This document shows, piece by piece, positions 1,174 through 26,920 of a DNA stretch of 64,000 nt. A program made the translations under genes and the position numbers. The notes under the pieces were generated by a model. It saw only the letters and a list, made by a program, of their open reading frames with translations. It searched no databases and was not told the DNA's origin. Source of the stretch: an uncultured Candidatus Peribacteria bacterium (GTDB taxonomy: Bacteria; Patescibacteriota; Gracilibacteria; BD1-5; JAGOOR01). How positions within the stretch are numbered: position 1 is the stretch's first letter; each line of letters starts with the position of its first letter. Location: contig CAZJBQ010000003.1 of the NCBI GenBank assembly GCA_964544625.1, positions 2,658-66,657 on the forward strand, read 5' to 3'.

Positions 1174-1284
1174 GTACTTTTGTTACCAAAAGTACCAAAA
1201 GTATTTAGGGGAACCAAAACTCGCTATGAACTGTATTCAACTTATATCTTTTTTCATCCCGCTCAGACAGTTGTTCCCCTAAAA
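1174..1284. repeat. Structured intergenic repeat, copy A (hairpin GTACTTTTG-TTA-CCAAAAGTAC plus long-range stem TTTAGGGGAAC...GTTCCCCTAAA)
   Basis: About 110 nt between the apt stop and the mtnN start. It shares its core with the copies at 22668-22774 and 26864-26920. Confidence 0.7.
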
Positions 1285-1304
1285 ACCTTTCTCCTTTTAA
1301 TAAT

Positions 1305-1820
1305 CTAAAATTGGATTGCTGAAAAAATTTCGTATTGATGTAATTTTTCTCTTCCTTTGAGTCATTTTAGTTCTATTAATACACCACCAAATACTTCACT
1401 CGCTCCATTGTTTTTCGCGAGACTGAGAGCCGCTCCGAGTGTGCCACCAGTCGCCAGGACATCATCGATAACGAGGACTCTGTGATTCTGGAGTATATCT
1501 TTCCTGATTGCGAGTGTTGCTGAGCTGTATTCGTAACTATAGGATTCTTTTGCGACGAGATCGGGAGGGAGTTTACCATCTTTGCGTATCATGACGAAAG
1601 GGAGATGATATTTTTCGGCTAGCATGCCACCGAGGACAAAACCTCTCGCATCGATTCAAGCGATGGCATCTATATTTTTATCTTGGATAAATACTCTGAA
1701 GCTCTCGAGTATTTCACTACGAGCCTCTACATCGAAGAGGAGAGGTGACATATCACGGAAGAGCACTCCAGGTGCTGGAAAATCAGGATAATTGGTGAGA
1801 AGGTGTGAATAGTCTTTCAT
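1305..1820 (-). CDS. apt: Adenine phosphoribosyltransferase
   Basis: VLVIDDVLATGGTL is the PRPP-binding motif. The N-terminal extension (DAIA[G]IDARGF) and the C-terminal extension (IELK[G]LKGREKL...) each cross an in-frame TGA. ATG at 1820, TAG at 1305-1307, 171 aa. Confidence 0.9.
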
Positions 1821-1845
1821 ATCGGTGTATTGTAGTGAGAATTTT

Positions 1846-2328
1846 TTATTTCAAAGTCTCGTCGAATTGAGCTATGCCACAGAGTTGAAAGGGGCTTCCT
1901 CCACTTTTTTGTATGTCTTTTTTGAGCGAGCCATTTCGTACAATAGGTTCTAGACAATCTATGATTGCATCAATAGTTTTTCGTGTTTCCGTCACTATGA
2001 TTGGTTCACATTTTCACGACCAAGGGAGTGCTCGGGTATAATTGATCGATTCAGGATTATAATCATGTGTATTGATTTGTACTCCATTCACGAGTAAGTC
2101 GAGCCCAAGTGTGTGTACTCACTCGAGTCGACGAACATGCTCATTGGTTCGGAGAACGAGAGAGAGATTTTTACAAACATAGGGGCCATAGTATGTTGTT
2201 CTATTCTGGACAAAAGGCCATTCAGAACCTGTGATAATCAGTGTGAGGAGAGTTATGCCGACACAGATACCTATGAGTGCCAATGCTTGTCAGAGTATAT
2301 GTCTGTAGGCATGAAACATATGGTTCAT
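1846..2328 (-). CDS. Hypothetical membrane-anchored protein (160 aa)
   Basis: ATG at 2328, TAA at 1846-1848, four in-frame TGA. There is an N-terminal TM segment (ALALIGICVGITLLTLIITG). No family recognised. Confidence 0.5.
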
Positions 2329-2395
2329 TATAGGGAGAATATGAAAAATAAAACATGATAATTGACAATATATTGATTTATCTACTATAGTATCC

Positions 2396-3214
2396 ATGAA
2401 ACATGCAGAAGAGTCATTGTTAGAGCGAGTTTCTGATGAGGCGGCAAAGTCTATCTTGGCTGAAAATGGTGGTATGGCACCGTTTGACGCACCTGCTTTG
2501 ATTATTCGTCCAAAATTTGAACATCATCCTTATGCCGATGAACCCCTTCGTGTTATATGAAAGGCCGTACGTATGGCTCTGACTACGGTATTGCGAGATT
2601 CGGCTACTGTTCCGAGTCATTTGGATCGATTTTTTGCTAGAGCATGTCGGAGGGTATTTGATAGACTCAAAATGGCTCCTGTGCTCAATTATACTCAGGA
2701 TAATCCGATTGTTTGCGATAATAATTCAGGTCATTTTATTCAAGATGGATTTAGTACGCTTGATGAATTATGAATCACGACTGAAATAGGGGTACCAGTG
2801 AATCGTCTCATACCCTTTATTTCTGAACAAGATACGTCAACCGAGAAAATGCTAATTTATCCAAAAGTACACTGAATGCGTCAGCTCAGAGAATTACAAG
2901 AATCCCTCCCAGAGGATAACGAAAGTCATCAATTACGAACGCTTATTGTCTTCATTATAAATACCTTTATTGATTTTACTCAACAAGTGCTTCATTTGAC
3001 AGCTCAAAATGATATTGATGACGCAGATTATAGAACATCTATGACGACTTTACGACTCGATTTTCTGAGCCAAATTTCTCGGTATCACCAAGACATTCGC
3101 TGTGGTGAGTTTTTTGATCCTGAGTGTGAGCATGCCGTTATATTGTGATATATCCAAACACGTCTTGGTGAGATTTTGCAAGAAACCAAACAATTTATTA
3201 CGTCTTCCAAGTAG
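2396..3214 (+). CDS. Hypothetical protein (272 aa)
   Basis: Joins track ORFs 2573..2773 and 2876..3148 (same frame) with an upstream ATG at 2396. Four in-frame TGA, TAG at 3212-3214. Confidence 0.6.
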
Positions 3215-3244
3215 TTTTTTCTTTGCTTTCCCTATAATTATCTC

Positions 3245-4891
3245 ATGCAATCTCGTTGTCGTATTTCTGGTATCGATTTTGATGTCTCTGTTCGAGAGAT
3301 GGAGATGCGTCGTTCCTTTGGTTTTGATGCTCTACCCGATGTAGCCCCTTTTTTACGGATTAGACATTTGGGAGCATTTTGGCCGCATTGGGCTCTCCAT
3401 AAGAGAAAATGTGACAGAACAGGGCGTGATATTGTCTCGGTTTTTCGACCTGACTGTCCTTATCCTGTCTGGCACAAAGATGAATGGTACAAATCTGCAC
3501 TACCTCCATCCGCCAAGATAGATTTTGGGCAGACATTTTTTGAGCAGGTGGAGAGACTCTTTAAACAGTGTCCGATTCCGCACAATTCTGGTATAGGTAA
3601 TGAAAACTGTGAATTTACCGATGATTGGTGGTTTAGTCGTAACTGTTATCTATGTCATAGCGGAGTGAAATGCGAAAATAATCGATATTGTTATCGTATG
3701 ATTGGTTCACGAGAATGCCTCTATTGCACGTTTTGTTTTGAGTGTGAGTATTGTTTTGATGCGACCAATTCTGAAAAATGTTATCGATGCGTCTACGGCC
3801 TGTATCTCAAGAATTGTCAGGAAACAGCATTCTGTTATGACTGTCGTAATTGTCATGACTGTATGTTTTGTTTCAATCTCCGTAACAAACAGTACTGTAT
3901 AGGTAATAAACAGCTTTCTCGTGAAGATTATGAGCAACAAAAGAAACAATTTGATTATTCCACGTTCGTAGGATATACACATTGTCAGGAATTATTTCGC
4001 AAGATGATGCGTGAGATTGCGTGGCATCGATCTGCATATCTGGATTTTGTTGAAAATTCAACTGGTAACTACGCATTGAGACTTAAAAATGTCTCTCATA
4101 CATTTTTTGGTGCCGATGGTGAAGACGGACTTAATATTACTCGTTTTGGATGGGCAAAAACAGCTCTTGATAGCATCAATTTGCAAGATGCGGAGCGCAT
4201 TTTTTATACTGCTGGGGCGCAAGTAAAAACGTATGATGTCGCGTGTTCGTTTATGCTTGATAATGTCCGATTTGCGCTCTATAGTGGATATAGTTCCAAG
4301 TGTGAAAATATATTTGGCTGTTGTGGTCTTCTTGATGCCAAGAACGCTATTTTAAACACTATTTATTCTGCGCAAGAGTATGCTACCTTCAAACAAAAGC
4401 TCATAGATCATATGAAATCAACAGGAGAATGGTGACAATTTTTCCCAGGTTCATTTGCCCCCAACCCGTACGATGAGAGCTGGGTAAGTTTTTACGCTCC
4501 TCTTACGTCAGAGCAACAAACTCACCTTGGCTTATTCTGTTCTCCGCAATCAGAGATCTCCCAGATGGAGTATCTCGCTGTTTCTTCGATACCATCTTCT
4601 GCCCAAGAGGCTACTCCTGCAATAACCAAAAATACTTATTGGGATGATGTTTCTCAAAAACCATTTCAAATTCTCCCACAGGACATTAATTTCTGCAGAA
4701 TACTCTGAGTGCCATTACCCCATACTCACTCAATGCGTCGTATGCAGGATAATTTCCGCTGGATGCCTTATGATTGAGCTCTTCGTGCTACCAAATGTGC
4801 AAAATCAGGTGTTGATATACAGACGTCTTGGCCCTCAGAATATGATGGGCGTATACTTTCTGAGCCTGAATATATCAAAATAATCGCATAA
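3245..4891 (+). CDS. Cys-rich hypothetical protein (548 aa) with dense CxxC-type spacing
   Basis: ORF 3245..4435 continues in frame through TGA at 4433, 4706 and 4775 to TAA at 4889-4891. The central region holds many C-x2-C and C-x-C motifs (CYLCHSGVKCENNRYCY...CFECEYCF...CRNCHDCMFCF). Confidence 0.7.
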
Positions 4892-4928
4892 TTTTGCGAT
4901 TTATATCAAAAATTGTTATACTGTAGTT

Positions 4929-6089
4929 ATGTCATCCAATATTTCTCCATCGACACGTCAGTTTCTCATCAATATCGTCATTTTGGTGAGCACGGGGCTC
5001 ATACTCTGGTTGGCCTATATTCTGAGAGATATTATTGGTTTATTTCTGATATCTTGTTTTTTTGCTCTTCTTTTGTGACCTTTTGTTGTTCGTCTCAAAA
5101 AGTGGAAAATACCTGATGTATTAGGTATTTTATTGACTTTTTTTGGTGTTTTTGCTACTTTTACGCTTTTTATTGCTTCTATAGTTCCCGTTTTTGTTGG
5201 GTTGGCCGAAGATTCAAAGACATATATCGTTCATACTGTAACAACTCTTGAGCAACAGGCTCGAGCGGGCTTTCCCATCATCGATTCTTTGCCTTTCAAT
5301 GCTGGTAAACTCATCCGCAGCGAGATAGATATTGCCCATATTGCTTCGTTTGTGACTGATCAAAATCGTGCACAATTTGTTGTAGATGGCCTGATTGGAA
5401 ATATTGATACTATCAAAGACTTTGTTCAAAAATGAGTGGGGCAATTTTCGACCGTGAGTCTCTCATTGGCAACAGGTGTTACCTCAGCTGTGACGACTTT
5501 CACGCTCTTTCTTCTTCTGACATTTTTTATTATTCTCGAACGTCGTTCGTTGATTCGTTGGTTTTTTGGTATATTGCCATCAGACCTAGGACATTATTTT
5601 CGTCATCGACAGGCTGTGATCGCTCATGCTATACATGCATGGCTCCGTGGTCAACTCATGCTCGCACTGTTTATGTTTGTTATTAATCTGGTAGGACTCT
5701 CTATTGCGCAATGGTTTGGGCTTCCCGTGAATCACATATTTTCACTTGCGCTCATAGCATGAGCTATGGAATTTGTTCCATATCTTGGTCCAGTTATTGC
5801 TTTTATCCCTGCATTTTTGATGGTTCTCGTGAGTCCTGAGGTGAGCATGTGGGGGATTGGCGCCGTTATTGGTCTCTATATCCTCTTTCAACAACTCGAA
5901 GGGAATGTCATGGTGCCTCTCATTATGAGTCGTACTCTGAGTCTCTCATCGCTCTATATTCTCGTTGTGACTCTTGTATGAGCTTCGCTCTGAGGGGCCC
6001 TCGGTGTGCTCTTGGCTATCCCACTTGCATCGATTCTCAATATATTTTATCACGACTGGATGCATTACCGTCGTTCACTTAAGGAGTAA
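4929..6089 (+). CDS. AI-2E family transporter (PerM/YhhT, UPF0118)
   Basis: Three same-frame track fragments (5133.., 5436.., 5766..) plus an upstream ATG at 4929. A multi-TM protein with the C-terminal EFVPYLGP...QQLEGNVMVPLIMSR...LLAIPLAS pattern typical of UPF0118. 386 aa. Confidence 0.75.
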
Positions 6090-6091
6090 GA

Positions 6092-6787
6092 ATGCACACG
6101 TATCTTTCTGATAGAGTTCTCTATACGTGAATTGGTCCGAATTCTTGCGTGTATCTGGAGCCTGATTTTAGTCATTTTATTGGTTCTCTTATTCGAGTAG
6201 ATAATTTTCTCTGAGACTATGTCGGATATGACGACTGGATGAGCCATTTTTCTCGTCAAGAGGAGGTAACAATCGTCACAAAGAGCGTAGAGCAGGCCAA
6301 GCTCTCTCCTGGGAAACGAATCCATATTTGTGGTATTTCGACTGCTGAATCTGTAGAATGTATCAGAGACTATTATCGCGAATGTGGTTATGAAGATGCA
6401 CTCGCCAAGAATTATACACTTCCTCTCGATGTTACCTTGACCGTGAGCGTCTCACTTGGTCATGTATTATGGTGTGAAAAGGATAAAACATTCCTTGATT
6501 CAGACGGGATTGATAGTACTTTTTATGGACAGGCTTGTCCGCCATTTCGTTCTCCTCATGATCTCAGATCCCTCCAACAGGCACTTCGTATGGGTGTGAT
6601 TTTGGGGCTCGAGCTCTCTCCACGAGAGATACCATTTCTTTCTGATATATTGATACGACAGATAGTTCCACCTTTTTTGCTCAGCCAGATGATCTATTTT
6701 CGTTGGCAGAAATATGGTTTTACAGGCTCACAGCATTCGATTGATATTCAGTATCCAGATTTCTCCCAAACCAATAGTGATAACTAG
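6092..6787 (+). CDS. Hypothetical protein (231 aa)
   Basis: The ATG at 6092 is in frame with ORF 6239..6787, with two in-frame TGA upstream. PPFRSPHDLRSLQQALRMGVI weakly resembles the dihydroorotase NPPLR region, but no metal-binding histidines are visible. Confidence 0.55.
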
Positions 6788-6993
6788 AGAAAAAAGTTTT
6801 TCTCATATTGGTGAAATATCTCTACTCGGACACTTCTGAGAGATTCGTTGTATGTTTGGTTTTTTTGTACTATTTTTTTTGCCCTGATGTTTATATAGAT
6901 GGCTATAATGACGAGAAAAGTAATGATACCTGCAATATCTATCCAGTACATCTGAGTGAGAAAAATCGTGAGCTGTTCTTGAAAAATTATCAT
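6784..6993 (-). CDS. Small membrane protein (69 aa)
   Basis: ATG start and TAG stop. It begins 4 nt after the sortase stop and has one TM segment (IDIAGIITFLVIIAIYINI). Confidence 0.5.
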   Translation of the reverse strand: MIIFQEQLTIFLTQMYWIDIAGIITFLVIIAIYINIRAKKIVQKNQTYNESLRSVRVEIFHQYEKNFFL

Positions 6994-6996
6994 ATT

Positions 6997-7938
6997 TTAA
7001 ATAGTATTAGTTATTTCTTTTAGCTCGGTGATGATAAGGAGTCGGCTAATAGTGGTTCATAGTGGCCAACAAGTCATGAGCGTGAGTTGCTTCATTTCTT
7101 CAGTCCCACCGAGAGATGATACATGTCCTGGCTTTACTACTTTTTTGTCCTTGACCATATAGACGAATTTTTTGTGTTTGAAGTAGACGATAATCTCATC
7201 TCCATTTTCGAGTTCATTGAGTAGGGCAAATACATCATTATAGTTTCCTTTTGCCCACGGGTAGTTCGAGCTATGACCGAATATAAAACTATTTCCTTTT
7301 TCTCCTGGATCAGCAGATCCTGGATATTTTACGATGCCGTTTTCGAGCTCTTTCATAAATATCTTGTGCCATTCAGTTGAGTTGCTCGCATCGTGTTGTT
7401 CGACATTGATGAGAGGGATATTTTTACCTATTTTTGGTATGATGATACGATCTTCGTAGGGGGTGACGTTGACTGAGAGTGTTACACTGGAAACTTCTTG
7501 ATCAAAGTAATCCACCCCGAGAGTTTGTGTCGGAGTATTGCTTTTTTCGAGACGTCGTTTCAGCATTCTCTGTATTTTCATTTGTTTGATTTCCTCTTCA
7601 TCGTTTGGGACACTTGTCACCTCTATTTTTTTGAGACCACCTTCTATGGCCTTTTGTTCGTTCGCGAGTTTTTCAGGAGCTAGGTATGCACCCGCGAAAG
7701 TACTGTATGCTGACCAGTTAGAGATTAAGAGAAGTATGATGAATAATATACTCGTGAGGAGTACAAAATGTATCATTCCACTGAGATTTTTCAGCCATTT
7801 ATGCTTTTTCTTGAGCTGTTTCTCTTCTTTTTTTACCCAATCAAAGACATCATGAGAAGTATCAAATACTTCTTGTACGAGATTTATTGGTTTATTGTTG
7901 TGTTTCTGAGGTTGTAAATCGCTCCATCGGTTCTTCAT
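6997..7938 (-). CDS. Sortase family transpeptidase
   Basis: N-terminal TM anchor, the FGHSS histidine, and LTLMTCWPL[G]TTISRLLI, which is the TLxTC active site with the downstream Arg. The Arg is reached only by reading TGA at 7057-7059 as Gly. TAA at 6997-6999, 313 aa. Confidence 0.85.
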
Positions 7939-7998
7939 GAAAATATGCTACCATACCTTTTCCCCAATCGCAATTTTTTGGACTGTTTCCACTTTACT

Positions 7999-9537
7999 TT
8001 ACCCGATTTTCCATGGTATACGTTTTTTGAGACTCAAAATGCCCCAAAACAGCACCGCACTGCCATAGACGATAAACATGCCTGCAAAGCCTACAAATGA
8101 TATCAGAGCACCTCAGAAAATGAGACCAAGAGCGTTGGCAAAGTTGTTGAGTATTTTGAGTGGTGCAGCAGAGGCATCGGCGTTGATGACATTGGACATT
8201 GTTACTCCAGCGTAGGATTTATTATACTCATCGGCAAAAATACCCTGACTCATCGGATAACCAGCTGCGTATCCTGTGCTATTTGTCATACCGAGTACTA
8301 CCACTATGAGGAGGCCAAATACACCCTCGAGAGCCCCTGTTAATGCTAGTCCAAAGAGCGCTATTGCAGACAAAAAGAGACCGAGAGTAATAATAGGGAA
8401 TTTTCATCGTTGGTCTGCTTGTTTGATCCAGAACATCTGTAGTCCGTAGGCTGGTATGGCGAGCACGCCAATCAAGATGAAACCACTCTGGATGATATTT
8501 TGTACTCCTGAATTTTGTAATACTTCCTCGAGATAGGTGATAAAAAATGTCGTTACAATAGTATCCCAGCATCAAAAGAGAAATATACACCCTGTGGTCC
8601 AGAGTAGTACGGGTACGAGCGTTTCTTTACCGAATATCAGTTTGTAGAGCATGCGATATTCTAGCTTTGTTTTTTGGAAGATATCATCCCAATCGAGTTC
8701 CTTGGTAATTTCTTTTGGCTTCATGATGATGTAACTCATGTCTCATTTTATTTTTTGGAAATCGCCAGTTGTGACGGTTGTTTTGACGTATGAGCCTGTA
8801 TTATGCTCGATTTCCTTCGCTTTATCGACTATATGGAGATTTTTGACTGCACTCATATTGAATACTTCGGATGAATTATCAAAATATGATTGTATAAAAA
8901 TCCACACACAGACGATGAGGAATATGAGTACGAGGAGTACGAGCTCTACAGAGCTAGTTTCTTGCGGTATGGCGAGTATACCGATAGAGAGAATAATTCC
9001 CACCACTGACCCTATACCCATTGATATGTTATATTTTGAGAGTACTGCATCATATTCTGATGGATCACAGTGATTGAGGAGATACGATATGGTGGTTATC
9101 TCATAGACTTCCTTGATTGTTCAGTAGAGAATTCCTACGGTGAGGAGAAGTGCGACATTAAATCCTGTTGTAAGGAAATTTCTCGTGATATCAAATATAT
9201 TACCTGTCAATTTGAAACCTTCATCAACCGATGTACGTATGAGATAGAGGAAAAGTATCGCTGCGATAATCATGAACGCATTGGCTACACCAAGCATAAT
9301 TTTTGATGGGACATGTCTCTGGATTGTACCGAGAGGCACATCGATAATCATCGACCAAATATTTCCTATGCCTAAAAATATACCCACCAAGAGAGGCGAA
9401 CCCACGATAAAGCCAAAGAAAAATACACTCGTGAGATGGAATATAATCCAAATCGCGCCGTAGACGCTGACGACATTAAAAAAATTCCTTAATAGTCTCG
9501 ATTTTTCAGGTATTTCGGGGGCAATAATCTGAGTCAT
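7999..9537 (-). CDS. MFS-type transporter (512 aa)
   Basis: Track fragments 9121..9537, 8743..9021 and 8113..8373 share one frame and join through TGA codons. Hydrophobic throughout, roughly 12 TM segments. TAA at 7999-8001. Confidence 0.7.
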
Positions 9538-9589
9538 ACCATGACTTTATCATATTTTTTGTCTGGAGTAAAATTTTCAGGTGTTTTTC

Positions 9590-10282: not shown

Positions 10283-10343
10283 AGAAAATATTATACTGTA
10301 CCTAAACATACATATACTTTACCATACTAATTTTATTTTGCAA

Positions 10344-11054: not shown

Positions 11055-11110
11055 CTTGATTTTATTTTCAATTCAATACTATACTTTGAATTAATGTATA
11101 AATATATATT

Positions 11111-15230: not shown

Positions 15231-16277
15231 TTATTCGAACAAGCTGTCGTCGTGTTCGCTGACCCAATTTGTAGTTTTCCCTTTTCCATACCATGGCCAG
15301 AGGAGCACGTCTGTGTGTTCAAAAGTACCTGCTTTGATATCGTTGAGGGGATTCATCGCGAGTTCAAAGTGGAGATGGTAGAGATATTTTTTGTCTGGCA
15401 CAGCTGATCCTCACACGTGTCAGAGCACAGTACCTTGTCATACTCTTCTTCATTCATACATATCCTCAGGTATGCTCTCGAGGTGAGCGTATATAGCGAC
15501 ATGTCCTGAAACTGTTTTGAGATAGACAGTGTTACCACGATAGGTATCGAGATTTTCTTGTTTCTCTATATCTGAATCACCATCATGGAGATGAGCCATT
15601 TCTTGCCAGCTAAAGTCGCGTTTGACGTGGATGATTGTACCGTCTTCGATCGCAGTGACTGGAGTTCATTCGGAGGTATAAAAATCCCAACCATGATGAA
15701 TTCCATCAGTTGAATCTGCCCGAAACGGACGTGGAGAATTTGGGAGGTGTGTAGATTTTGTTGGGAGAGCAACACTTGCTATAGGAAGAGAGTATTTCCT
15801 TTTTCGAGCTGCGAGGACGGTGTCGATATTGTCGAAAAATTGTCGTATCTTCATCGAAGAGAGCTTGTAATCTGTACGGAGTATGCTCCCAGCTTTGAGT
15901 GTATTTTCGAGAGTACTGGTAGATACATCAGAGAGGGTTTCTATTTCAGGCAGATTATTTGCTATAGGGAGTATGTAGTTCTTTTTTTGAAAAGTGACCA
16001 CGGGGAGTGTACATCGTCCTTTTGATTTCCATTGTACGACTGATGATGTGTCTGATGATTTGAGTATGATTCTCTTTTGAGAACAAGGCGAAGTGAGACC
16101 ATCAACATCTCACGAAGAGAGCCCTATGAGTACACCAGATCCTGTATCCAGAGAAGTCACACCAGAATAGAGTATCTCTAGAGGTGGCGTGACATAAGGC
16201 TCAGAATTGGCTTCGGATATGAGAATGCCAGGGAGTAAAAGTGTTATCAATCAGACTGACAAGGAGTGTCGAATCAT
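15231..16277 (-). CDS. M23 family metallopeptidase (348 aa)
   Basis: Signal peptide, then GIHHGWDF (HxxxD) and ...[G]HV[G]GSAVPDKKYLYHLHFEL (the HLH motif). Eight in-frame TGA. TAA at 15231-15233. Confidence 0.85.
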
Positions 16278-16480
16278 ACGATTTTTTGGTGTGTTTTTTC
16301 TACGAACAATTGATAATAGTGTATAAAAAAATTGATCGAATCAAGTTATTTATGATATTTCTCTGCTTGATTATGCTTTTTTCTCTTTTTTGCGATAAAA
16401 AATGATCAGTTGTGTGAAGAGCGTGTGAAGTATGCTTTCTTTTCTCGATGTTTCCTTTATCATCTCCCCACCTTCTTTTT

Positions 16481-18352
16481 ATGAAAAAAATCTTTCTTTC
16501 TTTTCTTTTTTGTTTTACTGCTTTTACATGGGCCTCTTGACAGCTCGACAGCGCTCGTTATCTCGCAGAACAAGATATCATCGTCAATCAATCAATACGG
16601 GCTCAACAGTATCGTATTAATACATCTCTTGAGATGCAAGAGGTAGCAATGTATCGACTCGGTGACTTCCTTACGAGACAGGAGGCTCTCGGAATTATTG
16701 TCAAAATGGCGAATCTCTACCTCCCTCCATCGTATAGTTGTCGTAAGTATTTCACTGATACACCAGAGTGGTGGGTCTGTCGTGCGGCAGAAGTGTCAGC
16801 TAATAATGGGATAGTGTCACGTAACAATACGAGATTCCGACCACGTGATACACTCACTCTCGCTGAGTCACTTGGTCTCATGATTAAAGCTCTCAATATA
16901 CCTCTTTCTACGTCTTCGACGAGTACTATTTCTGGTAATATTCCTGACTGGCAAAAGAGAATTATCCTCACTCTCCGAGAGCAAAATATAGGGTATGTAC
17001 AAGAAATACAGCCAAGAACTCCTTATGGAAATATCATATATAATTTTTATTGGGATGGTTATGATGGGAGAGGTTTGTGATTAGATTTTTCTCATCGTCT
17101 TACTCGTGGTGAATTTTTTCAGATTGCTTTTCTCTTTCTTACTCGCAATGAGTCAGTAGATCCTGTTTGTGAGAATTATCGATATAGTAATTGTCCATCT
17201 CGTTGTGATGCTGTTTGTGTTTCATCGAGTTGTAGTGGTGACATGTGTACTGCTGATTGTGAGTGACCGAATAGTTGTGTTCCAAAACCTTTTTCCTTTG
17301 AATGATGTAAAACGTATAATGATGGATGTAATGAATGTAGTGTTTCGTGAGGTGATGCTATTGCCTGTACTGAGCGTGCTTGTATTTGGCAGGGTACTCC
17401 ATCGTGTTCTGTCTGTGAACCAGGTTATGTGTTGAGCAATAAACGATGTATACCTGCTCCTAATTCTTGTGTCAAAGAGGGGGGTTATGCAGGTGGTGGT
17501 ATGATTATAGATGAGAATTATTCTGGTTATGTTTGTTGTAGTGGTCTGACTCGTGCTGAGCGTGCTGATGGTACGACTTTTGCCGATGCAGGATATACCT
17601 GTATCCGCCAAGGCGATAACTATTGTGATAGTCGTTATGAAAATGCTTATAATTCTTCTGATTGTCGGACGACTGCTTGTGTCAAAGAAGGTGGTGAGGT
17701 GGGGAATTATTCCGTTGCTCCAGAATATCAAAATATCGGTACTTGTTGTAGTGGATTAACGAGCGTATGACCAAAAGACCTCGTTGTCGGTGGCTCCAAT
17801 ATATGTGCGAACATAGGAGATGGATATTGCGATAGTCGATATGAGAGTACGTTGAATTCTTCTGATTGTTCGTCGACAACAACTTTTGATTCATCTATCT
17901 GTCAGAGTTATTTTGATGGATGTAATAGTTGTTCTCGTCAGTCAAATGGCCAAACTATTTGTACTATGATGGCTTGTTTTACCAATGGGCCAGCATATTG
18001 TACCAGCTACGTTTCGTATTCTCCTATAAATCAATCTCAGGATGATACGTATCTTAACAGAGTCTTAAATGAAATCCATAATTATACGAAAGACCTCTCT
18101 TGTACGAACCATAGCCAATGTGATTGGAAACTTTTTGGTCGTAATCCATGTGGCAGCTCAAGTATTGGTATCAAGTATTCATCCAAAAATATTGATATGA
18201 CTCTTTTTGAGAGCAAGACAAATTTTTATACTTCCGCTCAAGCACTTTATCATCAAACATATCCTACTTTTGGTACGTGTGCGATGATGTCTCCTCCACC
18301 ATCATTGAGTTGTATCAATAATGTTTGTAGCTACGGTGGAGAAGCTCTATAA
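16481..18352 (+). CDS. Secreted Cys-rich protein with an SLH-like N-terminal module (623 aa)
   Basis: Signal peptide MKKIFLSFLFCFTAF. The module FTDTPEWWVCRAAEVSANNGIVS...RPRDTLTLAE is followed by a long Cys-rich region. Track ORFs 16634.., 17429.. and 17852.. share the frame. Confidence 0.7.
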
Positions 18353-20089
18353 TTACATCTCTTCAGGAAGAGGCATGCCGAGAATAGTTGCTGTGTAGCG
18401 AATAATTTCGAGACTGGTACGGATAATTTTTATTCGTGCTCCTCTTTCATTTTCTGGTGTCTCTTTGAGTTTCGGAGTATTCACATAGAGAGCATTCAGA
18501 TGTCTCGTCATCGTGGCAATATGGGCTATCAAAAGGTGAAATTTGTATGTTTCTCCACAGGCTATCAGGAGCTCATTGAAAGCGAGAATGTCCAATACGA
18601 TATCACGATCGAAAGTGGTGAAGTTTACTGTTGATAGTTTATTGTTGATAGTTGTTTCGGGGCCGATTTCATCAAGTATTTTTTTCCATCGTACATAGGT
18701 GTACTGGAGGTATGGTCCACTATTTCCTTCGAAGGCGAGGACTTTATCCCATTCAAAAATCCAATCGCGTTCACGATCTTGACTTAAAAAAGAGTAGACA
18801 ATCGCTCCAAGGGCCACGGCTTTTGTGTCGCTGTCAGAGAGCGTTCTCTCACGCGCTTCAAGTATTTTTTTGACACGATCAAAGCTTTCTCCAATCAAAT
18901 CTTTCAAAAATATCACACGTCCGTGTCGTGTCGACATAGCCCCATCGGGGAGACTTACGAAACCATTTCCTGCATGAGTGAGCTCAGTATTTTTTCCATC
19001 GAGCCAAGCCTTTGCCGCTGTTGCGAATAGTTGCCTAAAATGGAGCGCTTGTCGATTATCGACAAAATAGACAATACGACTTGGAGACCAGTTTTTGAGA
19101 CGGTACTTGATAGCGGCGAGATCACTCGCGAGATAGCCATGCGTTCCGTCTCGTTTTTGGAGAATACATGAGGGGAGTTTTGTTTCTTTTAGAAATACTA
19201 CTCCGACACTTTCGTCTTCATTTTTCGTAGCAATTCATCTCTCGGTGAGTTCGTCGACGACCGCAGACATCGTATTGTCAGGTGTGAGATCGGGCCAATT
19301 GCCGAGTTTTGGAAGTGGTAGACCTTCATAGAAACTCTCACCAATCCAGATATCAGGATGGACACCAAATTCGCTCATGACAGCCCGCACTCCTGCGAGA
19401 CTTTTGTCGGTGAATTGTTGCCAGAGTTTTACTGATGCTTCGTCACCTTCGGAGAGAAGCTTAAATGCATCACGACACTCTTGTTCTATTGCTGGCTCTT
19501 TTTCTGTTTTTTCTGTGATAGCGACATAGATTTCTAGCAGATGATGCACTGGATCTTTTTCAAATGCATCTTCATCACCGAAATATTTCCAACCGGTGAT
19601 GAGTTTGCCAAATATTCCACCCCAATCCCCCTGATGCATATCAGCCGTGACATCGTATCCCATGAGACGGAGGAGGTTGATCGTCGCTTGTCCGAAAAGT
19701 GGTGTGCAGAGATGACCTATATGGAGCGGTTTCCCGATATTTGCCCCCATATAATCGACGACGATTTTCTCATTTTTCTTTTCAAATATTGGCAGTGACC
19801 AATTTTCTAACTCTTTTGTATAAAAATCGTCTGTGACGGTGAGATTCACGAAACCGCCTTGGATATTTCCATCTGTTACATAGCTTTCATTTTTCATGAA
19901 ATCAAGAACTTCTTGTGCGAGCACTGGCGGAGGTGTTTTTGTCGCTTTCACAGCCGGAAATATATTGATACAGATATCACCAAATTTGCGATCTGGGGGT
20001 ATAGTGAACTGAAAAATATCGCTGGAACAGTTTTTGTTGGTCTTTTTGAGATAGTGTCCGAGGGATTCTCTGAGGGCTGTAGACTGCAT
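18353..20089 (-). CDS. argS: Arginine--tRNA ligase
   Basis: PLHIGHL (HIGH motif), MSTRHG, and a C-terminal anticodon-binding region. The two track fragments join across TGA at 19235-19237. Likely start is MQSTALRE at 20089. 578 aa. Confidence 0.9.
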
Positions 20090-20192
20090 AAATAAAGGGA
20101 AAGAATTATGAGCAGTATATGCGTAAAACAAAAAGGGGCAATATTTGCATATGAGTTCAGGATAGTGTACTATGAGTGGGTAATTATTTTTT

Positions 20193-21593
20193 ATGGCAGG
20201 ACCCGAAAAAACACCCGCGCAAAAAGAAGCTGAAAAAGCTGCTCTCGAGCAGGCTCGTCTCAAGGCTGCTCAAGAAGCTCAAGAACAACAAGAAAGAGCA
20301 GAAATGGCACAGGAATTATTGAAATCCAAAAAAGAATGAGTTGTTCAAGATACTAAAGAAAAAGAAGAACAACTCGACGTAGCTCTCCCTCCAGAAAATA
20401 TACTCAAAGATGAGAAAAAATTCGGAGAAATATTTGATCTCAAGCTCGCTAATACTCCTCGTAATATCCCAGCCTTTCTCGATGCAATAGCAGAGAAAAA
20501 TCCTACTCTTCTCCAGAATCCAATTATTATCCAGGTCCTTGCTGAGAAAATTCAGACACTTCTCCAAACGGTTGCCAAAGATTCGAGCCTCTCTGGAGAT
20601 CGTGATTGGATGGATCATCTTCGTCAGAGTATTCAGCGAGTTATCATCGATCCTGACCTCTACAAAAAAATGGATGCGTATGGTACGATGGATAAAGCCC
20701 TTCGAGACAAACTCCAGAGCCAACTCTGAATTGAGGGGATTACGGCGGATTTGGATAAAAACACAATAGACATTGTTCGTAGAGTGCATACTGGCTTTTA
20801 TCAATTTGATACTGAGATAAACGGTTGGGTGAATTCTCTCTGAGCCCATGTATTTCTCTGGCCAGAGAATATAGCCGGTATCAAGACATATCTCCGCGCT
20901 GTCCAGCCAGATCATCCTTTTCTCTCTGTCACCAATTATCATAGCAATGATAAAGAAGGGAAGTATACATTTCAATTCACAGGCGGTGGTCACAATATGG
21001 CACTGGCAGAAGCGGATTATCTCCAGCATTATCTCGCAGAACGTGCGAAAGGTCCGAAAATGACTCACGCAGAAATAGTGAATAAACTCGCTCAAACCCA
21101 TGCCGTGACTACTGGTTCTCAGGCTGCTGTTGATGCATTTGAAAATACGTATAAGCAAGGACGTGTAAGCTATTTGAATGAATCAAAAGGAAATTTTGTT
21201 ACCCAAAATACTGAGCTTTCAAAGACCATTTTACCGACAGAACCATATCTCCAACTAACTGCACTCGTCGAAAGTCCAAATTATGCTGACCAGAAGGAAA
21301 AATATGATAAAATACGTGAAAAACGTCCAGAAATTATGGATATTATTTATGATATTGCATGAGGATTTATACGTTTTGATACCGATCATCATCGTTTTGA
21401 AACTGCGACACAAAGAATTATACATTTCAATCGTTCTGAACTATCTATGATTGATGAAATATTTCAAAAATTTCAACCAAATTCTCCGTTTCTCATTGAT
21501 AGAAAAATTCGTACTAATGAAAATCGTCTCATAATGCAGGAACATGAGAAGCCAAAGATTCTCCAAGAGCGTCTCAATTACTATCAACAATAA
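20193..21593 (+). CDS. Hypothetical protein (466 aa)
   Basis: ATG at 20193 is in frame with ORF 20997..21362. Four in-frame TGA. The composition is charged and helical. The 280-aa minus-strand track ORF across this region looks like antisense noise. Confidence 0.6.
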
Positions 21594-21614
21594 TTATTTT
21601 CTAATTTTTATTAT

Positions 21615-22043
21615 ATGTCTATCAAATCATCTGTTCGTTCTGCTCTCTCAGCTATTGATGATAATCGCCCTGCTGATGCAAAAAGTGCACTCAATAGTAT
21701 TGGTGGTGACCTTTCTTCTATAGTGAGTAATGCTAATTCAGCTGATGGAGATAACGCACGTGTCAAAACTGAGTCTACCCAGGCTCAATCTGATATGAGT
21801 CGTGATATGCAAGAGGCGCAAAGTAAGTTCACTACTGCCATGAATGAAGCGACTCGAATACTTGAAGAAGCAATTACGGAAGCGCAATGAAACTTTTCTC
21901 GTGCCCGTACTGCTGCCGAAGAAACACTAGCAAGTGATCTCAATAGCGCTCAAAGTACTCTGAATGGACATGTTGCTGACATACAAGGATTGACTGCTAA
22001 AATTGATAGTTCTTTGAATAGGATAAAAGATTTAGCTTCCTAG
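21615..22043 (+). CDS. Hypothetical coiled-coil-like protein (142 aa)
   Basis: ORF 21615..21890 extends across TGA to TAG at 22041-22043. Confidence 0.55.
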
Positions 22044-22078
22044 TTTCGCGAGTATCGCTATACTCTGCATGATTTTTC

Positions 22079-22594
22079 ATGCACTACTCAGCTCCATCAC
22101 ATCCACTCATACATGCTCTTCTGCTTCGCCGAGAAGAATTTCGTGGTATTCAGAGACTTATCGTCGAGACGCGGGAGCAGTGAGAAAAATTATTAAAAAC
22201 CCTTCAAACACTCGCTGAAATCGAAAAAAATAACAAACAATACCGACTCATCTCCAACAAAACAGATATCCTAGAAGTGCTCTATGATACAGAGCTAGTT
22301 GGTATATTCCCAATTGAAACGCTGGATTGGGATGTAACTGAACTCGAATCAAAACTCACACTCTCTCTGGAGAAAAATATGAAATACAGCGAAGAAAAAC
22401 TCGTCAATTGGCTCACTGATCATGGATTCAAAGCCGGGAAATCCGATGAAGAACATACATTTTTTCGACAAGGCGACACAGTGAGTATCCAGACACGGAA
22501 ATGAACTCTTCTTGTAAACTTTTTTGGCACGATACTAGAAACCCTCTATCTCGGTTCTGAGGAAATAGGTGAGTTTCGATTGTTTTCTTGTTAG
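22079..22594 (+). CDS. Hypothetical protein (171 aa)
   Basis: ATG at 22079 is in frame with ORF 22277..22504. Two in-frame TGA, TAG at 22592-22594. Confidence 0.5.
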
Positions 22595-22599
22595 TCGTC

Positions 22600-22619
22600 A
22601 TTCCCGCGAAGGCGGGAAT
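22600..22619. repeat. GC-rich perfect hairpin ATTCCCGC-GAAG-GCGGGAAT
   Basis: An 8-bp stem with a 4-nt loop, 6 nt after the stop of the preceding gene. It is far more GC-rich than its surroundings and is not followed by a T-tract. Confidence 0.6.
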
Positions 22620-22667
22620 CCAGGCCAGAAACTAATTCTACTCATTATACCTTAGGATATATCTCTT

Positions 22668-22774
22668 GTACTTTTTGCAGAAAAAGTACCAAAACTGTTT
22701 AGGGGACAAAAACTCGGTCAGTTTTTCGACTTACAGTTCTGCATTCATGGACCTTAGACAGTTTGTCCCCTAAA
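22668..22774. repeat. Structured intergenic repeat, copy B
   Basis: GTACTTTTTG-CAG-AAAAAGTAC, then CAAAA, then TTTAGGGGACAAA...TTTGTCCCCTAAA. Lies between convergent genes. Confidence 0.7.
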
Positions 22775-22803
22775 GACCCGTTTCCGTTTAGCTTTTTTTA
22801 AAA

Positions 22804-23349
22804 TTAAATCAGATTTTTCTCTTTGAGTATTCCTGATTTTTCGAGAATCATTGCTTCTTCGACGCACCATGGCGAATATTTATCCGTGTTATTTTTTATT
22901 TCAGTGAGAAAATCATCCCAACTTATCCATTCGATGGCTTCGACTTCGTCTGGATTTATCATCGGTTCATCTTCGGTGTATCAGATATGGATAGGGCATA
23001 TCTCATTCTCCATGACGCCATCTTTGGTAAATTGGTAGCGGTAAGGTGATGCTTCTTCGATCCATTGCACAGTCATTCCGAGTTCGTCTTTGATTCTTCT
23101 CTTGGCTGCATCGGTATTTGGCTCATTGAGTCCGGGGTGACCACAACAACTATTTGACCAGGCAAGAGGCCAAGTTTTTTTGACGTGGCTTCTTTGTTGG
23201 AGGAGGAGCTTCTTTTCGGCATTAAAAATAAAAGCTGAAAATGCTCGATGGAGAGGCGTATTGGCGGTATGCACTTCGGATTTTGGCATGGTGCCCAGTA
23301 TATTGTTTTGTTCATCGACGAGGACGACGAGCTCTGCAGGAGTATTCAT
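22804..23349 (-). CDS. idi: Isopentenyl-diphosphate delta-isomerase (type 1, Nudix fold)
   Basis: HRAFSAFIFN...LLLQQRS..K..WPLAWSNSCCGHP is the type-1 IDI pattern. The frame extends across TGA at 22981. 181 aa. Confidence 0.85.
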
Positions 23350-23358
23350 GGCGAATGA

Positions 23359-23730
23359 TTATTGTGCGAAGTGTACAAAAAGAAGAGCAAATGCAACGAT
23401 TCATACACAGAGAAGTAACCACAAGATCCAATGTTTTTTCTGGGGTTTCTTTTTCTCTTGAGTTACGATATACGCACGAGCATCATTGAGCACTGAATTG
23501 GGTATCAGTATCCACATGAGGAGAGGTATAATCATAGCGTCATCGACTATCCCTAGGAGTGGTAAAATCTCTGGTAAGACATCAACAGGATTGATAACAT
23601 ATATGAGAGAGAGTATCGCTATGACGAACTTCGTACCTACAGGAGTTCTATTGTCCATATAGGCACGTGCGAGCATACGAATCTCATTTCTTATACCACG
23701 AATTTTTTTGATATTTTGGAGGAGCTTCAT
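23359..23730 (-). CDS. DUF1232 (YkvA-like) membrane protein
   Basis: INPVDVLPEILPLLGIVDDAMII matches the DUF1232 signature. The frame extends 13 codons past TGA at 23401. Confidence 0.7.
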
Positions 23731-23737
23731 AGATGAA

Positions 23738-24190
23738 TTAGATTATTGTGAACTCACCTTGATTGATTGGTAGTTGTGTGAGTTTCTGTACGATTTCAGG
23801 GATATTTGGAATCTGAGGTGTGCATGATGATATGTCTTCAAGTGGCGCCCATCTGTATTCCGAATATTCATCATTCAGAACAATATCGCCCTCAACATGT
23901 ATGGCGAGATAATGGGGGAGTATCATAGCATTGCCATCTTTTTTTCTGAACATTGTGTTATGACTCAATGTCGGAAATATCTTTATCTTGAAATTCTCTC
24001 AGACTTCTTCATCTTTTTCACGTTTCAATCCAGCGAGTATTGATGTATCAGTAGTTTCCATTTTCCCTCCAATAAAGGAAAAAACTCCATCGTAATCTGC
24101 CTCTCATTTTCTCTTGCAGAGGAGGACGCTCTTATGATCCGCTGAGAGGACAACTATTTTCTGGCAGTACTGAAAAAGATACTCATTCAT
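23738..24190 (-). CDS. Nudix hydrolase (150 aa)
   Basis: Nudix box GGKMETTDTSILAGLKREKDEEV[G]. The final conserved Gly is the TGA at 23999-24001. Confidence 0.8.
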
Positions 24191-24224
24191 AGAATGATTG
24201 TACAGATTGAGGCCCTTTTGCAAC

Positions 24225-24503
24225 TTACGACTTTTTTTTGGGAACTATAAGAACAACCACTCTATTTTTTACTTCGTCTACACGAAATTCAACAGAATGT
24301 TGTCTATATCTATTTTTTGGATGCTCTTTTCTGAGCGATGTTGCTAGGTCTTCAGCACTTATCCCTCATGCTGGGACAAATGTTCTTTCATGGTCTACAA
24401 TGTTTCACTCATCAGGTGATTCTTCTGGGATGACTCGAGTGTCTAATCTGGCAGTTCTTTTGGGTTTTTTGGTAGCGGGTGATTCTGAAGGTACTTCTGT
24501 CAT
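24225..24503 (-). CDS. Hypothetical small basic protein (92 aa)
   Basis: ATG at 24503, TAA at 24225-24227, two in-frame TGA. It sits on the same strand as its neighbours. The overlapping plus-strand ORF 24238..24522 has a less protein-like composition. Confidence 0.4.
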
Positions 24504-24535
24504 AAATAATTATTATAAATAAAATTTATGGTATT

Positions 24536-25102
24536 TTATACATTCTCAGCTGTTGTCAAACGGCCGTTTTTCATGAGGTCGTGTATGCATTGCATAGTTT
24601 TCCAGTTTCTGGTTGTCGCTGTTACGCCGAGTTTTTTCTCGAAAAACATGGTTGAGAATTTCGTCATACCGTATCCGTCAGGGCAGTAGAGGTAGATAGT
24701 TTTTCCGGTGATAGTGAATTCATCACTCTGATATTTCTCATCTCTCGTACTCGCGAGGAGTTTCTCATCGGGGAGATTATCGAGGAGGGTGACGTGGAGT
24801 TTTGTGATGTCTTTTTTGTGGTCGTTGTATGGATTATTTTTGAGAATCTCGGCGATATCTTTCTCGGCGAGTACCAACACAGGAACTTCGAAACCGTAGT
24901 GATTATGGATGATATCTGTTATTTCTTTTGCGAGTTTTTTGGTACTTGTTTCGGTACTTCCGAACACAATATTACCACTCTGGATGTAGGTCATGACATT
25001 TTCATAGCCTCACTTTTGAAAAAGTGCCTTGAGGTCCTTCATATTGATCATCCTCTGGCCACTGACATTGATGCCGCGAAGCACCGCTACATAGGTATTC
25101 AT
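24536..25102 (-). CDS. DUF1697 family protein
   Basis: N-terminus MNTYVAVLRGINVSGQRMINMKDLKALF...YIQSGNIVF is the DUF1697 signature. One in-frame TGA. Confidence 0.8.
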
Positions 25103-25137
25103 GGCGCGAGTATACTGGCTTTTCTCAATCCCGGTAA

Positions 25138-26091
25138 TTAGTTTTGTATGAGATAAACAATATATCCACTATAGACCATGACAAATACGAGACCTTGCCA
25201 GCGCTCCAGTTTGTCTTTTCTCCCAATAAAAAATGCCAAAAAAAGAAAAATAGTCGTACCGATACACATCCAGATATCAGCAAAACTTCATGTATTGATA
25301 TTGATGGGTGCAAATACTGATGAAATACCGAGAATCCAGAAAATATTAAAAATATTTGAACCAACGATATTACCGACAGCAATATCGTTTTGTCCTTTTC
25401 GAGCAGCAACAATCGATGTCATAAGCTCTGGCATAGATGTGCCTATGGCGACAATAGTGAGACCAATCACACGTTCTGAGACACCAAACAATTGTGCAAT
25501 TTTGACTGCTCCATCAACAAACATTTTTCATCCTACTATGAGCCCCACGAGACCGAGCACTATGAGTCCAATTGAAATCCAAGTACTATATTTTTTGATA
25601 CCAGAATCGGTGTTTTCTTCATCATTGCTAATGCCAGCGATATAGTAGAGGAAGAGAATAAAAAAACCTATCAACGCGAGCCCATCCCCACCACTGATCA
25701 TATTCTTTGTGCCTTGTCCAAAGTAGACATCCGCACCGAGAACGAGCACTGTGAGTATAGCGAGCAGTGAAAATGGTACTTCTTTCCAGACTGTCGATGA
25801 TTTGACGGGGATGATTCCCAGGACACTCGTGATACCGAGAATGAGCAAAATATTTGCGATATTTGAACCGACGACATTTCCGAGTGCTATGTCGCTATTG
25901 CCTCGTATGGCTGCCAGGAGACTCACAGTGAGTTCTGGAAGTGATGTACCAAATGCGACGACGGTCAAGCCGATGACGAGACTGGAGACGCCGAATTTTT
26001 TGGCAATAGAAGCAGAACCAGAGACGAGAAAATCAGCACCTTTGACGAGGATGACGAGACCGACGATAACGAGGAGAAGAGGAAGTATCAT
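25138..26091 (-). CDS. Ca2+/Na+ antiporter, CaCA (YrbG-type)
   Basis: Two alpha-repeats: GTSLPELTVSLLAA...GNVVGSNI and GTSMPELMTSIVAA...GNIVGSNI. Fragments join through two TGA. 317 aa. Confidence 0.85.
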
Positions 26092-26152
26092 GATATAAAA
26101 TTACATAACCCGTACATCGTATGAGTTTGCGTAGATTTTCAATGGAATTGTA

Positions 26153-26821
26153 TTATTTGATAGACGCGTTATTTTGTTCTTGTTCTTCTTTGTAGTCGAG
26201 GATTTTTTTCGCGAATTCAAAGACTTCTTCGCGTGTTGCCAGTGAATTTGCTCTTGGATCTATGCGGAGTTGAGCATCATTACGGAGTATCTTCCTGATA
26301 TATTCATAAAACACACCCGCTTGCCACTCAGCGCCAAAGTCGTAAGCACTTTCATAACCACCAGATTGACCGTCAACAGGGAAATTGTATCACCAATAGT
26401 ATCAATATCCTGCCCATGCTCCATCTTCTGGGAATGCTTTCATCAAAATCCCCAATGCTTCAGCCCGAGTAATGTTTCCATAAGGGCGAGTTTTCATACC
26501 AATAGGTTTTGCATTTATGAGTCCGTGATCAGCGGCTGTTTCTATCGTACGACAGACCCAGTCAGTATTTGATTTTGGCACATCAGCGAAGTCCCCACGA
26601 CAAGTCGTATTGCGTGTTATATTCATCATCGCGAGCACCATACCCATGATTTCTGAGCGAGCGATATAGTCATCGAAACGATAATTTTTTGGTTCACTAC
26701 TCCAATCCTTGATGATTCTTTTACTGGCGAGATAGTTTGCTTGAGAGACATCAGTCGTTGTATACCCGAAAGTTCCTACTACAAAAGAGGAGAGGAGGAT
26801 GAATGTGATTATTTTTTTCAT
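26153..26821 (-). CDS. Secreted protein with an SLH-like module (222 aa)
   Basis: Signal peptide MKKIITFILLSSFVVG. The module FADVPKSNTDWVCRTIETAADHGLIN...ITRAEALG looks paralogous to the N-terminus of the 16481 gene. The frame extends across TGA at 26402. Confidence 0.65.
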
Positions 26822-26863
26822 GTGAAAAGTATAGGGATTTTTATTCTGCTACAAAATCTCTTT

Positions 26864-26920
26864 GTACTTTTTGTCGAAAAAGTACCAAAACGATTCAAGG
26901 GGCAAAAACTCGGACTGTTT
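26864..26920. repeat. Structured intergenic repeat, copy C (3' arm missing)
   Basis: GTACTTTTTG-TCG-AAAAAGTAC CAAAA...CAAGGGGCAAAAACTCGG is present. The closing ...CCCCTAAA arm is absent, and the AT-rich gene begins at 26959. Confidence 0.6.

Follow-up and report, generated by a model that had tools for sequence, protein, structure and literature searches.

Structured intergenic elements with a loop-flank pseudoknot in Candidatus Peribacteria and other bacteria: a candidate family of small RNAs or RNA modules

A 64-kb stretch of DNA from an uncultured Candidatus Peribacteria bacterium (64,000 nt of contig CAZJBQ010000003.1, hereafter the window) carries three copies, here called A, B and C, of a knotted intergenic element. 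With their relatives in other genomes, these copies make up a widespread family of structured intergenic elements. The family matches nothing in Rfam 15 and, with a probability of roughly one half, acts as RNA, either as a small RNA or as an RNA module. A structured small RNA is favoured because the long stem of the element covaries freely, a hairpin loop pairs with its own flank and a homopolymer linker matches a tract of base pairs in length, which together point to selection on a folded single strand and most simply on RNA. Few non-coding RNAs are known from the tiny genomes of candidate-phyla bacteria, and here three covarying paralogues lie within 27 kb. The family is well defined, by a covariance model and more than 120 loci, and at least one of its carriers, Alistipes sp. 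i18-0019-D1 (NZ_AP031424.1, locus L044), is cultured, which makes it testable.

The copies in the window and their fold

The three copies were located by direct reading and repeat finding over the 64-kb window, at 1174-1300 (A), 22668-22795 (B) and 26864-~26935 (C), in one shared orientation; the plus strand used here is the orientation of the description and not a proven transcribed strand. The first-pass annotation of this DNA had reported three intergenic copies in the same orientation, and direct reading, repeat finding and gene calls that treat TGA as a sense codon all agree with it. A search for GTACTTTT-N6-AAAAGTAC with up to two mismatches returned exactly three matches in the window against 0.03 expected, and 0 of 100 shuffles reached three. 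Each copy begins with a hairpin, P1, that combines four outer pairs with a U·A run (4-7 pairs across the family). Next come a homopolymer linker (CAAAA as written) and three bases complementary to the P1 loop, which form with it the pseudoknot PK1; the loop and flank triplets are TAC/GTA in A, CAG/CTG in B and TCG/CGA in C. A long-range stem, P2, comes next. The succession of hairpin, CAAAA and long-range stem, with arms that change together between A and B, had already been described and is present, at slightly shifted coordinates. The differences among the hairpins had also been placed in the loop, where they do lie, but they are not neutral, as they covary with the triplet after CAAAA. The parts of the three copies are as follows.

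1174-1195, plus strand: P1 hairpin of copy A, with CAAAA next
1196-1200, plus strand: linker CAAAA of copy A (complete copy)
1201-1203 with 1184-1186, plus strand: PK1 of copy A, GTA with loop TAC
1204-1214 with 1273-1283, plus strand: P2 of copy A, 5' arm TTTAGGGGAAC with 3' arm GTTCCCCTAAA
1215-1223, plus strand: CAAAACTCG of copy A
1264-1271, plus strand: core CAGACAGT of copy A, with the tail reaching ~1300
22668-22689, plus strand: P1 hairpin of copy B, with CAAAA next
22690-22694, plus strand: linker of copy B (complete copy)
22695-22697 with 22678-22680, plus strand: PK1 of copy B, CTG with loop CAG
22698-22707 with 22765-22774, plus strand: P2 of copy B, 5' arm TTTAGGGGAC with 3' arm GTCCCCTAAA
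22755-22762, plus strand: core TAGACAGT of copy B, with the tail reaching ~22795
26864-26885, plus strand: P1 hairpin of copy C, with CAAAA next
26886-26890, plus strand: linker of copy C
26891-26893 with 26874-26876, plus strand: PK1 of copy C, CGA with loop TCG
26894-26903, plus strand: P2 5' arm TTCAAGGGGC of copy C; this copy also keeps AAAAACTCGG and TTTTCATC

A covariance model built from 27 relatives, with A and B in the training set and C outside it, scores the copies at 132.7 bits (A), 114.6 bits (B) and 61.2 bits (C, E 4e-11), and with filters off over the whole 64 kb it finds nothing above noise beyond these three. Conservation of A and B extends about 20 nt past the ends first assigned to them, to ~1300 and ~22795. 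Copy C is truncated, being well conserved over its first ~70 nt only, with the 3' half degenerate or replaced. It keeps only P1, the PK1 triplet, the P2 5' arm and the first junction strand because the last codons of a gene in an adjoining AT-rich island overlap its degenerate 3' part, so that the earlier statement that C lost its 3' arm where the island begins was essentially right. The displaced 3' arm or half was not found elsewhere in the window, including beyond the island.

The fold draws its main support from covariation. Of the cells in the 27-sequence alignment, 94% are occupied by standard pairs; the value for shuffles is 78%. Both partners vary at 14 pairs, and pairing drops to 43-57% when the partners are displaced by one to three columns. 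Compensatory changes occur at 10 of the 13 pairs of P2 in these sequences, and in PK1 both partners vary at all three pairs, with 96% of its cells paired. Across 115 distinct copies PK1 is perfect in 61, compared with 9.6 in shuffles (maximum 17), and it is built from 16 different triplet pairs. Even the outer pairs of P1 show compensatory variants, namely UUAC/GUAA (L035), GUUC/GAAC (L121) and CUGC/GCAG (L122), where L and a number denote a locus. The length of the linker A run follows that of the P1 U·A run (Spearman rho 0.72), a relation that the search pattern does not force, and this match suggests base triples, with one U·A pair contacted by each base of the linker. A sharp boundary of conservation coincides with the first base of P1; T stands directly before it at 72%, and the eight preceding bases are pyrimidine-rich.

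The subtype found in the window additionally has conserved junction strands, AAAACUCG, UCAUC and CUCARACAGU. The core CARACAGU is complementary to a conserved CUGUUU that lies ~25-30 nt past P2, directly before a U run. The R position of this core-tail pairing flips between A and G repeatedly among close relatives, always facing U, and L037 carries a compensatory double change, CAAACAAU / AUUGUUU. The core-tail pairing is likely to be a second long-range pairing, though a less secure one. Copies within one genome are only 65-85% identical and yet retain the structure, which suggests selection rather than recent spread.

Distribution, subtypes and turnover of the family

One scan of species-representative genomes for the exact pattern GTACTTTT-N6-AAAAGTACCAAAA (21 bases) gave at least 120 loci, and the covariance model recovers extra copies outside that pattern. 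The first-pass annotation had proposed a covariance model and a scan of related genomes, and had considered that an absence of further copies and of covariation, or an origin of the copies as fragments of a known insertion sequence (IS) or a tRNA-derived element, would speak against a new element; further copies and strong covariation were found, and the copies match no known IS end or tRNA. Among the matches listed, carriers include Gracilibacteria, Peribacteria, Levybacteria, Magasanikbacteria, Saccharibacteria and other Patescibacteria, together with many gut Clostridia and Oscillospiraceae, Alistipes and Bacteroidaceae, and a few Proteobacteria. Viral contigs contribute two matches, one of which (L121) is a pair of copies between phage tail genes. 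The sharing of the element with gut Clostridia, Alistipes and phage suggests that its function, or the way in which it spreads, is not confined to one phylum.

Elements are ~125-140 nt long, and the P1/PK1 knot is common to at least four different bodies in different phyla. The pairing of the hairpin-knot module with several unrelated bodies, like the pseudoknot, the cross-phylum spread and the recoded genetic code described below, had been missed in the first-pass annotation. The bodies are as follows.

Window type: AAAACUCG plus CUCARACAGU
Variant with ~45 extra nt
~170-nt type: Levybacteria and other Patescibacteria
Short GC-rich hairpins, then ACCCC: Clostridia
Separate type: Alistipes

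The ~170-nt body shows conserved GAAAGUCG and CGGGAG...CUCCCUGA, occurs in L012, L027, L041, L076, L090, L097, L117 and L015, and is likewise without an Rfam match.

Copies are gained and lost over short evolutionary distances. Some Peribacteria copies are nearly identical to A and B of the window, and copy B in particular has near-identical counterparts in L119, L072 and L053 that stand in other genomic contexts, the flanking genes of L119 and L072 being non-homologous. The closest relative recovered, L039 (labelled Candidatus Peribacteria), has amino-acid identities to the window of 88% for mtnN and 83% for apt, and carries a syntenic copy A between these same two genes. An additional full copy stands in L039 between mtnN and the gene that follows, a place taken up in the window by a spacer of 8 nt. 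L039 further carries a solo, bodyless P1 (GTACTTTTTGTCGAAAAAGTAC, 1065-1095) 39 nt upstream of its copy A, identical to the P1 of the window's copy C and absent from the window. Since so close a relative differs by one copy and a solo hairpin, copies evidently turn over. Local clusters also occur, with four or five copies within ~1.2 kb in L056 (2600-3800, on both strands) and L082 (4700-5200), and L111 is clustered as well (four or five members within 1-8 kb). Each clustered member in L056, L082 and L111 is preceded by a further P1-like hairpin, CTTACTTT...AAGTAAG.

A degenerate scan of viral sequences for P1 variants was discarded as a source of members, as it returned mostly a different AT-rich palindrome family that has no loop-flank pairing. 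This family, (G/C)TTC-T6-G-A7-GAA(C/G)-CAAAAAACTTTT, is multi-copy in GC-rich viral contigs (L134, L151, L155, L183, L199 and others).

Gene context, strand signals and competing explanations

Known families were searched with Rfam 15. At the gathering threshold, the whole window and 18 loci gave tRNA and tmRNA only, none of them over the element, and in E-value mode copy A, the L056 array and eight loci of other body types gave weak chance matches only; none of the subtypes has a match on either strand. ARAGORN and the Rfam tRNA model found no tRNA-derived element, the sole tRNA of the window being tRNA-Lys at 54149-54224 (minus strand). The earlier failure to match the copies to an RNA family, a tRNA or an IS end thus stands, also after checks of junctions and neighbouring genes. 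A BLAST search of plasmids and phages with one Clostridia-type copy as query gave no match, and literature searches by sequence and by topic yielded nothing relevant to the element. Resemblance to CRISPR or type III toxin-antitoxin repeats was not found either, the copies being 0.25-21 kb apart, irregularly spaced and without an associated gene family. A LexA box upstream of the Oscillospiraceae copies was rejected by inspection, since its spacer of 3 or 4 nt indicates a hairpin and no fixed operator, and box C/D-like or K-turn, hammerhead, and acceptor-stem/ACCA motifs were set aside because, by eye, they are not conserved across variants. The architecture and the cross-phylum spread are new to us; the element belongs to a known kind, that of orphan small RNAs or of dispersed, structured intergenic elements. 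Orphan structured RNAs and self-cleaving ribozymes (twister, hatchet, pistol, HDV-like) are likewise small, knotted, multi-copy and scattered over phyla and phages, lack a fixed gene neighbour and conserve nucleotides at their junctions, but the element matches none of their models, and its conserved junction strands are limited to the window subtype.

No protein family is enriched within 4 kb of the element, and an all-against-all BLAST of flanking open reading frames (ORFs) recovered only spurious frames through the element itself. Orientations are balanced in tandem gene contexts (18 versus 16), and downstream genes are opposed as often as co-oriented. The lack of an enriched neighbour family and of an orientation preference argues that the element is not cis-acting. 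It is also found inside operons, between gatC and gatA (L027) and between the phage tail genes of L121, which implies that it is tolerated within transcripts.

These observations largely refute a cis-regulatory leader or riboswitch, in which an H-type pseudoknot aptamer with base triples, as in the SAM-II, SAM-V and preQ1 classes, would control a downstream gene, and which we regard as very improbable. The knot topology does resemble that of small pseudoknot riboswitches, and Clostridia copies carry G4 and C4 runs that would permit alternative hairpins. The element nevertheless takes no fixed position upstream of a recurrent gene class and has no consistent downstream gene or orientation; A and B face gene 3' ends as written, no gene follows B on the other strand, and no Rfam riboswitch family matches. 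Compared with the H-type triple pseudoknots of these riboswitches and of telomerase RNA, the element is alike in its loop-flank pairing and in a homopolymer linker, rich in U on one strand and in A on the other, that follows a U·A tract of matched length; it differs in lacking an Rfam match and a consistent downstream gene, in a second helix of 3 bp, in its large variable bodies and in that its triples are predicted from such length matching.

A small protein gene deserves next to no credence. TTG-started frames at 1172-1282 (A) and 22666-22773 (B) do give 35-36-codon open frames (MYF..KYQ..) across the two copies. Relatives, by inspection, carry in-frame stops (CTA TAA, CTA TAG), for which reason a small ORF across the element was rejected; moreover, indels are not multiples of three, and the variation follows paired helices and not codons.

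The preferred reading, a structured RNA, would take the form of a compact, doubly knotted small RNA, transcribed alone or released from longer transcripts. Its P1/PK1 knot, probably with triples between linker and U·A tract, could act as an end that resists nucleases or as a handle for a protein, the specific function would reside in the P2 domain, and the neighbouring gene would not be regulated in cis. With its fast gain and loss of copies, the family would at the same time behave as a dispersed repeat. A further and more tentative proposal, which we hold possible though doubtful, is that the knot is an undescribed RNA module of bacteria and phages across phyla, a minimal triple-helix pseudoknot placed at the ends of several unrelated structured small RNAs, which it would cap or mark. 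By analogy, it might be a bacterial counterpart of ENE/MALAT1-type end protection, or a handle for a conserved RNA-binding protein or for self-processing. In the PAN ENE and at the MALAT1 3' end, U-rich strands can clamp a genomically encoded A tract and so protect the RNA end; those elements are eukaryotic or viral and differ in architecture. If the module reading is true, the window subtype would be a new doubly pseudoknotted RNA class in reduced-genome bacteria, and a knot that protected RNA ends through a triple helix, or that served as a protein handle, would add a new general module to the building blocks of bacterial RNAs and offer a useful marker for further small RNAs in uncultured lineages.

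Several points weigh against a role as RNA. That the element is transcribed is something we infer, and the function proposed for it is a guess. The linker-tract correlation and the covariation counts are uncorrected for shared ancestry, and the near-invariance of P1 is in part a search artefact, inflated because the family was sampled through a scan that demanded that exact sequence. Position-wise base composition shows no conserved -10 box at a fixed distance upstream of P1 and lends no support to a sigma-70 promoter of the element's own at such a place, and no clear terminator follows P1 on the reverse strand. The strand signals, finally, conflict in their G·U versus A·C counts, folding energies and end signals. 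In the window subtype, single P2 mismatches are A·C as written, and hence G·U on the reverse strand, in 22 cases against 4, which favours the reverse strand; this bias is absent from other subtypes (23 versus 24) and from PK1 (17 G·U versus 18 A·C). The reverse strand is also favoured by our reasoning from classical pseudoknot geometry, according to which a five-base linker can span the deep groove of an eight- to nine-pair helix, where U·A-U triples are possible, and is too short for the shallow groove of such a helix. In Clostridia copies, moreover, the short P2 hairpin followed by UUUUGG is called an intrinsic terminator on the reverse strand. The as-written strand, on the other hand, is favoured by the G·U pairs of the core-tail pairing, by several G·U pairs in the P2 stems of L006 and L012, and by a U run after the element, preceded in some subfamilies by a covarying hairpin of small size; on this strand a terminator-like hairpin closes the Clostridia copies. 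Two candidate signals were rejected: a promoter-like match inside P1 on the reverse strand is not conserved across copies, and a terminator hairpin directly upstream of P1 occurs in only 11 of 126 copies and is no general feature.

These end signals are also what would be expected of a two-way transcript-end cassette, which we consider unlikely without dismissing it. Here P2 followed by UUUUG would terminate transcripts on the reverse strand, and the core-tail helix (or the last Clostridia hairpin) followed by the U run would terminate those coming the other way; P1/PK1 would lie just past the reverse-strand stop point, and the element would be a dispersed terminator or RNA-end module in a niche comparable to that of repetitive extragenic palindromic (REP) sequences and bacterial interspersed mosaic elements (BIMEs). 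A consensus scan calls P2 plus ACTTTTGG a reverse-strand terminator in L003 and L047, and an as-written terminator at the conserved 3' boundary of L003. G·U is tolerated in each helix on whichever strand has a U run behind that helix, and the cassette would account for these opposite wobble biases. It would also account for the position next to stop codons, as each of the three window copies begins 5-30 nt beyond the stop codon of a minus-strand gene. Elements between convergent genes outnumber those between divergent genes by 14 to 6, and the P2-side gene points towards the element in 66 cases versus 45. The conservation of P1/PK1, beyond the proposed reverse-strand stop, is left unexplained by such a cassette, which also predicts an orientation bias in tandem contexts that is not seen and would be harmful inside the operons in which members lie. 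In addition, the P2 of the window subtype encloses ~60 nt, an atypical span for a terminator, and at copy A no terminator is called by the scan.

The multi-copy and locally clustered occurrence, often in the same orientation (window, L111, L056), together with gain or loss between close relatives, a solo P1, a sharp boundary at the first P1 base, random orientation to genes and presence in phage, could alternatively reflect a DNA-level mobile or recombination element of the kind of a miniature transposable element with inverted repeats (MITE), REP/PATE or attC. The folds would then act in single-stranded DNA, and P1, with conserved inverted arms and a variable spacer, would be the binding site of a trans-acting recombinase or HUH transposase; an arm-spacer-arm layout is typical of recombinase core sites, and attC sites likewise conserve structure over sequence. 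If true, this would amount to a new dispersal system, but we think it improbable. Among the genes within 4 kb of ~130 copies, neither transposases nor integrases nor RAYT-type families show enrichment. The internal P1 and P2 stems are the only inverted repeats, terminal ones being unseen at the junctions compared, and no target-site duplication is visible at the L039-versus-window site, the sole filled-versus-empty comparison. Diverged copies keep their structure, with a freely covarying long stem, where a MITE or IS would show a fixed sequence, and we know of no precedent in such DNA systems for a three-base loop-flank pairing combined with a length link between tract and linker. Of the origins first listed for the element (small RNA, REP- or MITE-like element, recombination site), the structured RNA is thus favoured, and the MITE and IS end have little support.

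Like REP/BIME, ERIC, Correia and RUP repeats, the element is multi-copy and intergenic, lies near gene ends, is more frequent between convergent than between divergent genes, and varies in copy number between relatives. The genomic niche is similar to that of REP/BIME, but the present family spans several phyla, has a pseudoknot and a freely covarying long stem in place of a conserved palindrome, and has no RAYT-type gene nearby; no Y1-transposase cluster lies within 4 kb of the copies, a distant single-copy RAYT elsewhere in the genome being outside this search. For IS200/IS605, PATE and TnpB/IscB guide RNAs, the ~120 loci contain no tnpA, tnpB or iscB cluster, and Rfam, which presumably holds guide-RNA-related models, gives no match. 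Known TnpB/IscB guides sit beside the hairpin foot; the covarying triplet of the element is in the hairpin loop. Integron attC sites share the retention of structure over varying sequence, and the window copies lie just 3' of ORFs. The R''/L''...L'/R' boxes with their GTTRRRY core (R''/R', RYYYAAC/GTTRRRY) are not kept, however: P2 is without an R/L box consensus and its arms differ freely (GGGGAAC, GGACAGC, GGGTAAT...), no integrase and no cassette arrays of ORF plus site were found, and orientation to genes is random.

Genetic code and surroundings of the window copies

The genes around the copies are legible only under a recoded genetic code. With TGA read as sense, the long open frames of the window add up to 57,924 residues instead of 21,361, and recoding TAG or TAA brings a far smaller gain; the sense assigned to TGA is probably Gly (code 25). 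Under the standard bacterial code apt, mtnN, an idi-like gene and many others look split. These seemingly broken genes are intact because the window reads TGA as sense, and pseudogene decay was rejected as the cause, given that TGA-sense reading nearly triples total ORF length. A Leptospira origin, considered along with such decay, was rejected too, the relative L039 being labelled Peribacteria. The genes adjoining the copies are listed here.

1305..1820, minus strand: apt, adenine phosphoribosyltransferase (Pribosyltran E 1.6e-13), intact only with TGA as Gly
22804..23349, minus strand: idi-like Nudix gene (isopentenyl-diphosphate isomerase), named by inspection of the translation and not against Pfam
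26959..29280, minus strand: AT-rich island gene, with an nSTAND3 NTPase domain (E 1.3e-48) and an Mrr-type nuclease domain (Mrr_cat E 7e-06)

One TGA of apt sits at what we take to be a conserved glycine of the adenine phosphoribosyltransferase family, and one TGA splits the idi-like gene under table 11. When genes are called in this way, A, B and C are all intergenic. Copy A is bounded by the apt stop (1305), ~5-20 nt from its P2 end, and by the start of mtnN; copy B by the end of a plus-strand gene (22594) and by the stop of the idi-like gene (22804), which is ~10-30 nt from its P2 end; and copy C by a gene that starts at 26821 and by the gene of the AT-rich island. This island (26940-29300, GC 0.24-0.31) adjoins and truncates copy C, and its Mrr-nSTAND3 product is, judged by its predicted domains, a conflict or defence-type protein. 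The position of copy C at an island junction is a single case and no pattern.

A hairpin of a different kind, GTCATTCCCGCGAAGGCGGGAATCC, stands at 22598-22624 (plus strand), 43 nt upstream of copy B. The type GTCATTCC-N-GGAATCC is also found upstream of members in six other Patescibacteria loci (L022, L112, L118, L075, L012, L041) and may be a second dispersed repeat or a common terminator. Two large genes of the window, at 54343-56685 and 16007-18352, encode many cysteine-rich CGNG...EQCDDGN repeats; relatives of these proteins stand beside elements in several Peribacteria loci, which is probably a coincidence. A 29-nt stretch is duplicated at 54066-54094 and 54145-54173 (97% identity, 79 nt apart), overlaps the 3' end of tRNA-Lys and looks like an integration-site scar. 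A second low-GC patch (0.34) at 46000-48000 includes an ORF at 46234-47307 (minus strand), the N-terminus of which resembles, by eye, a DNA cytosine methyltransferase.

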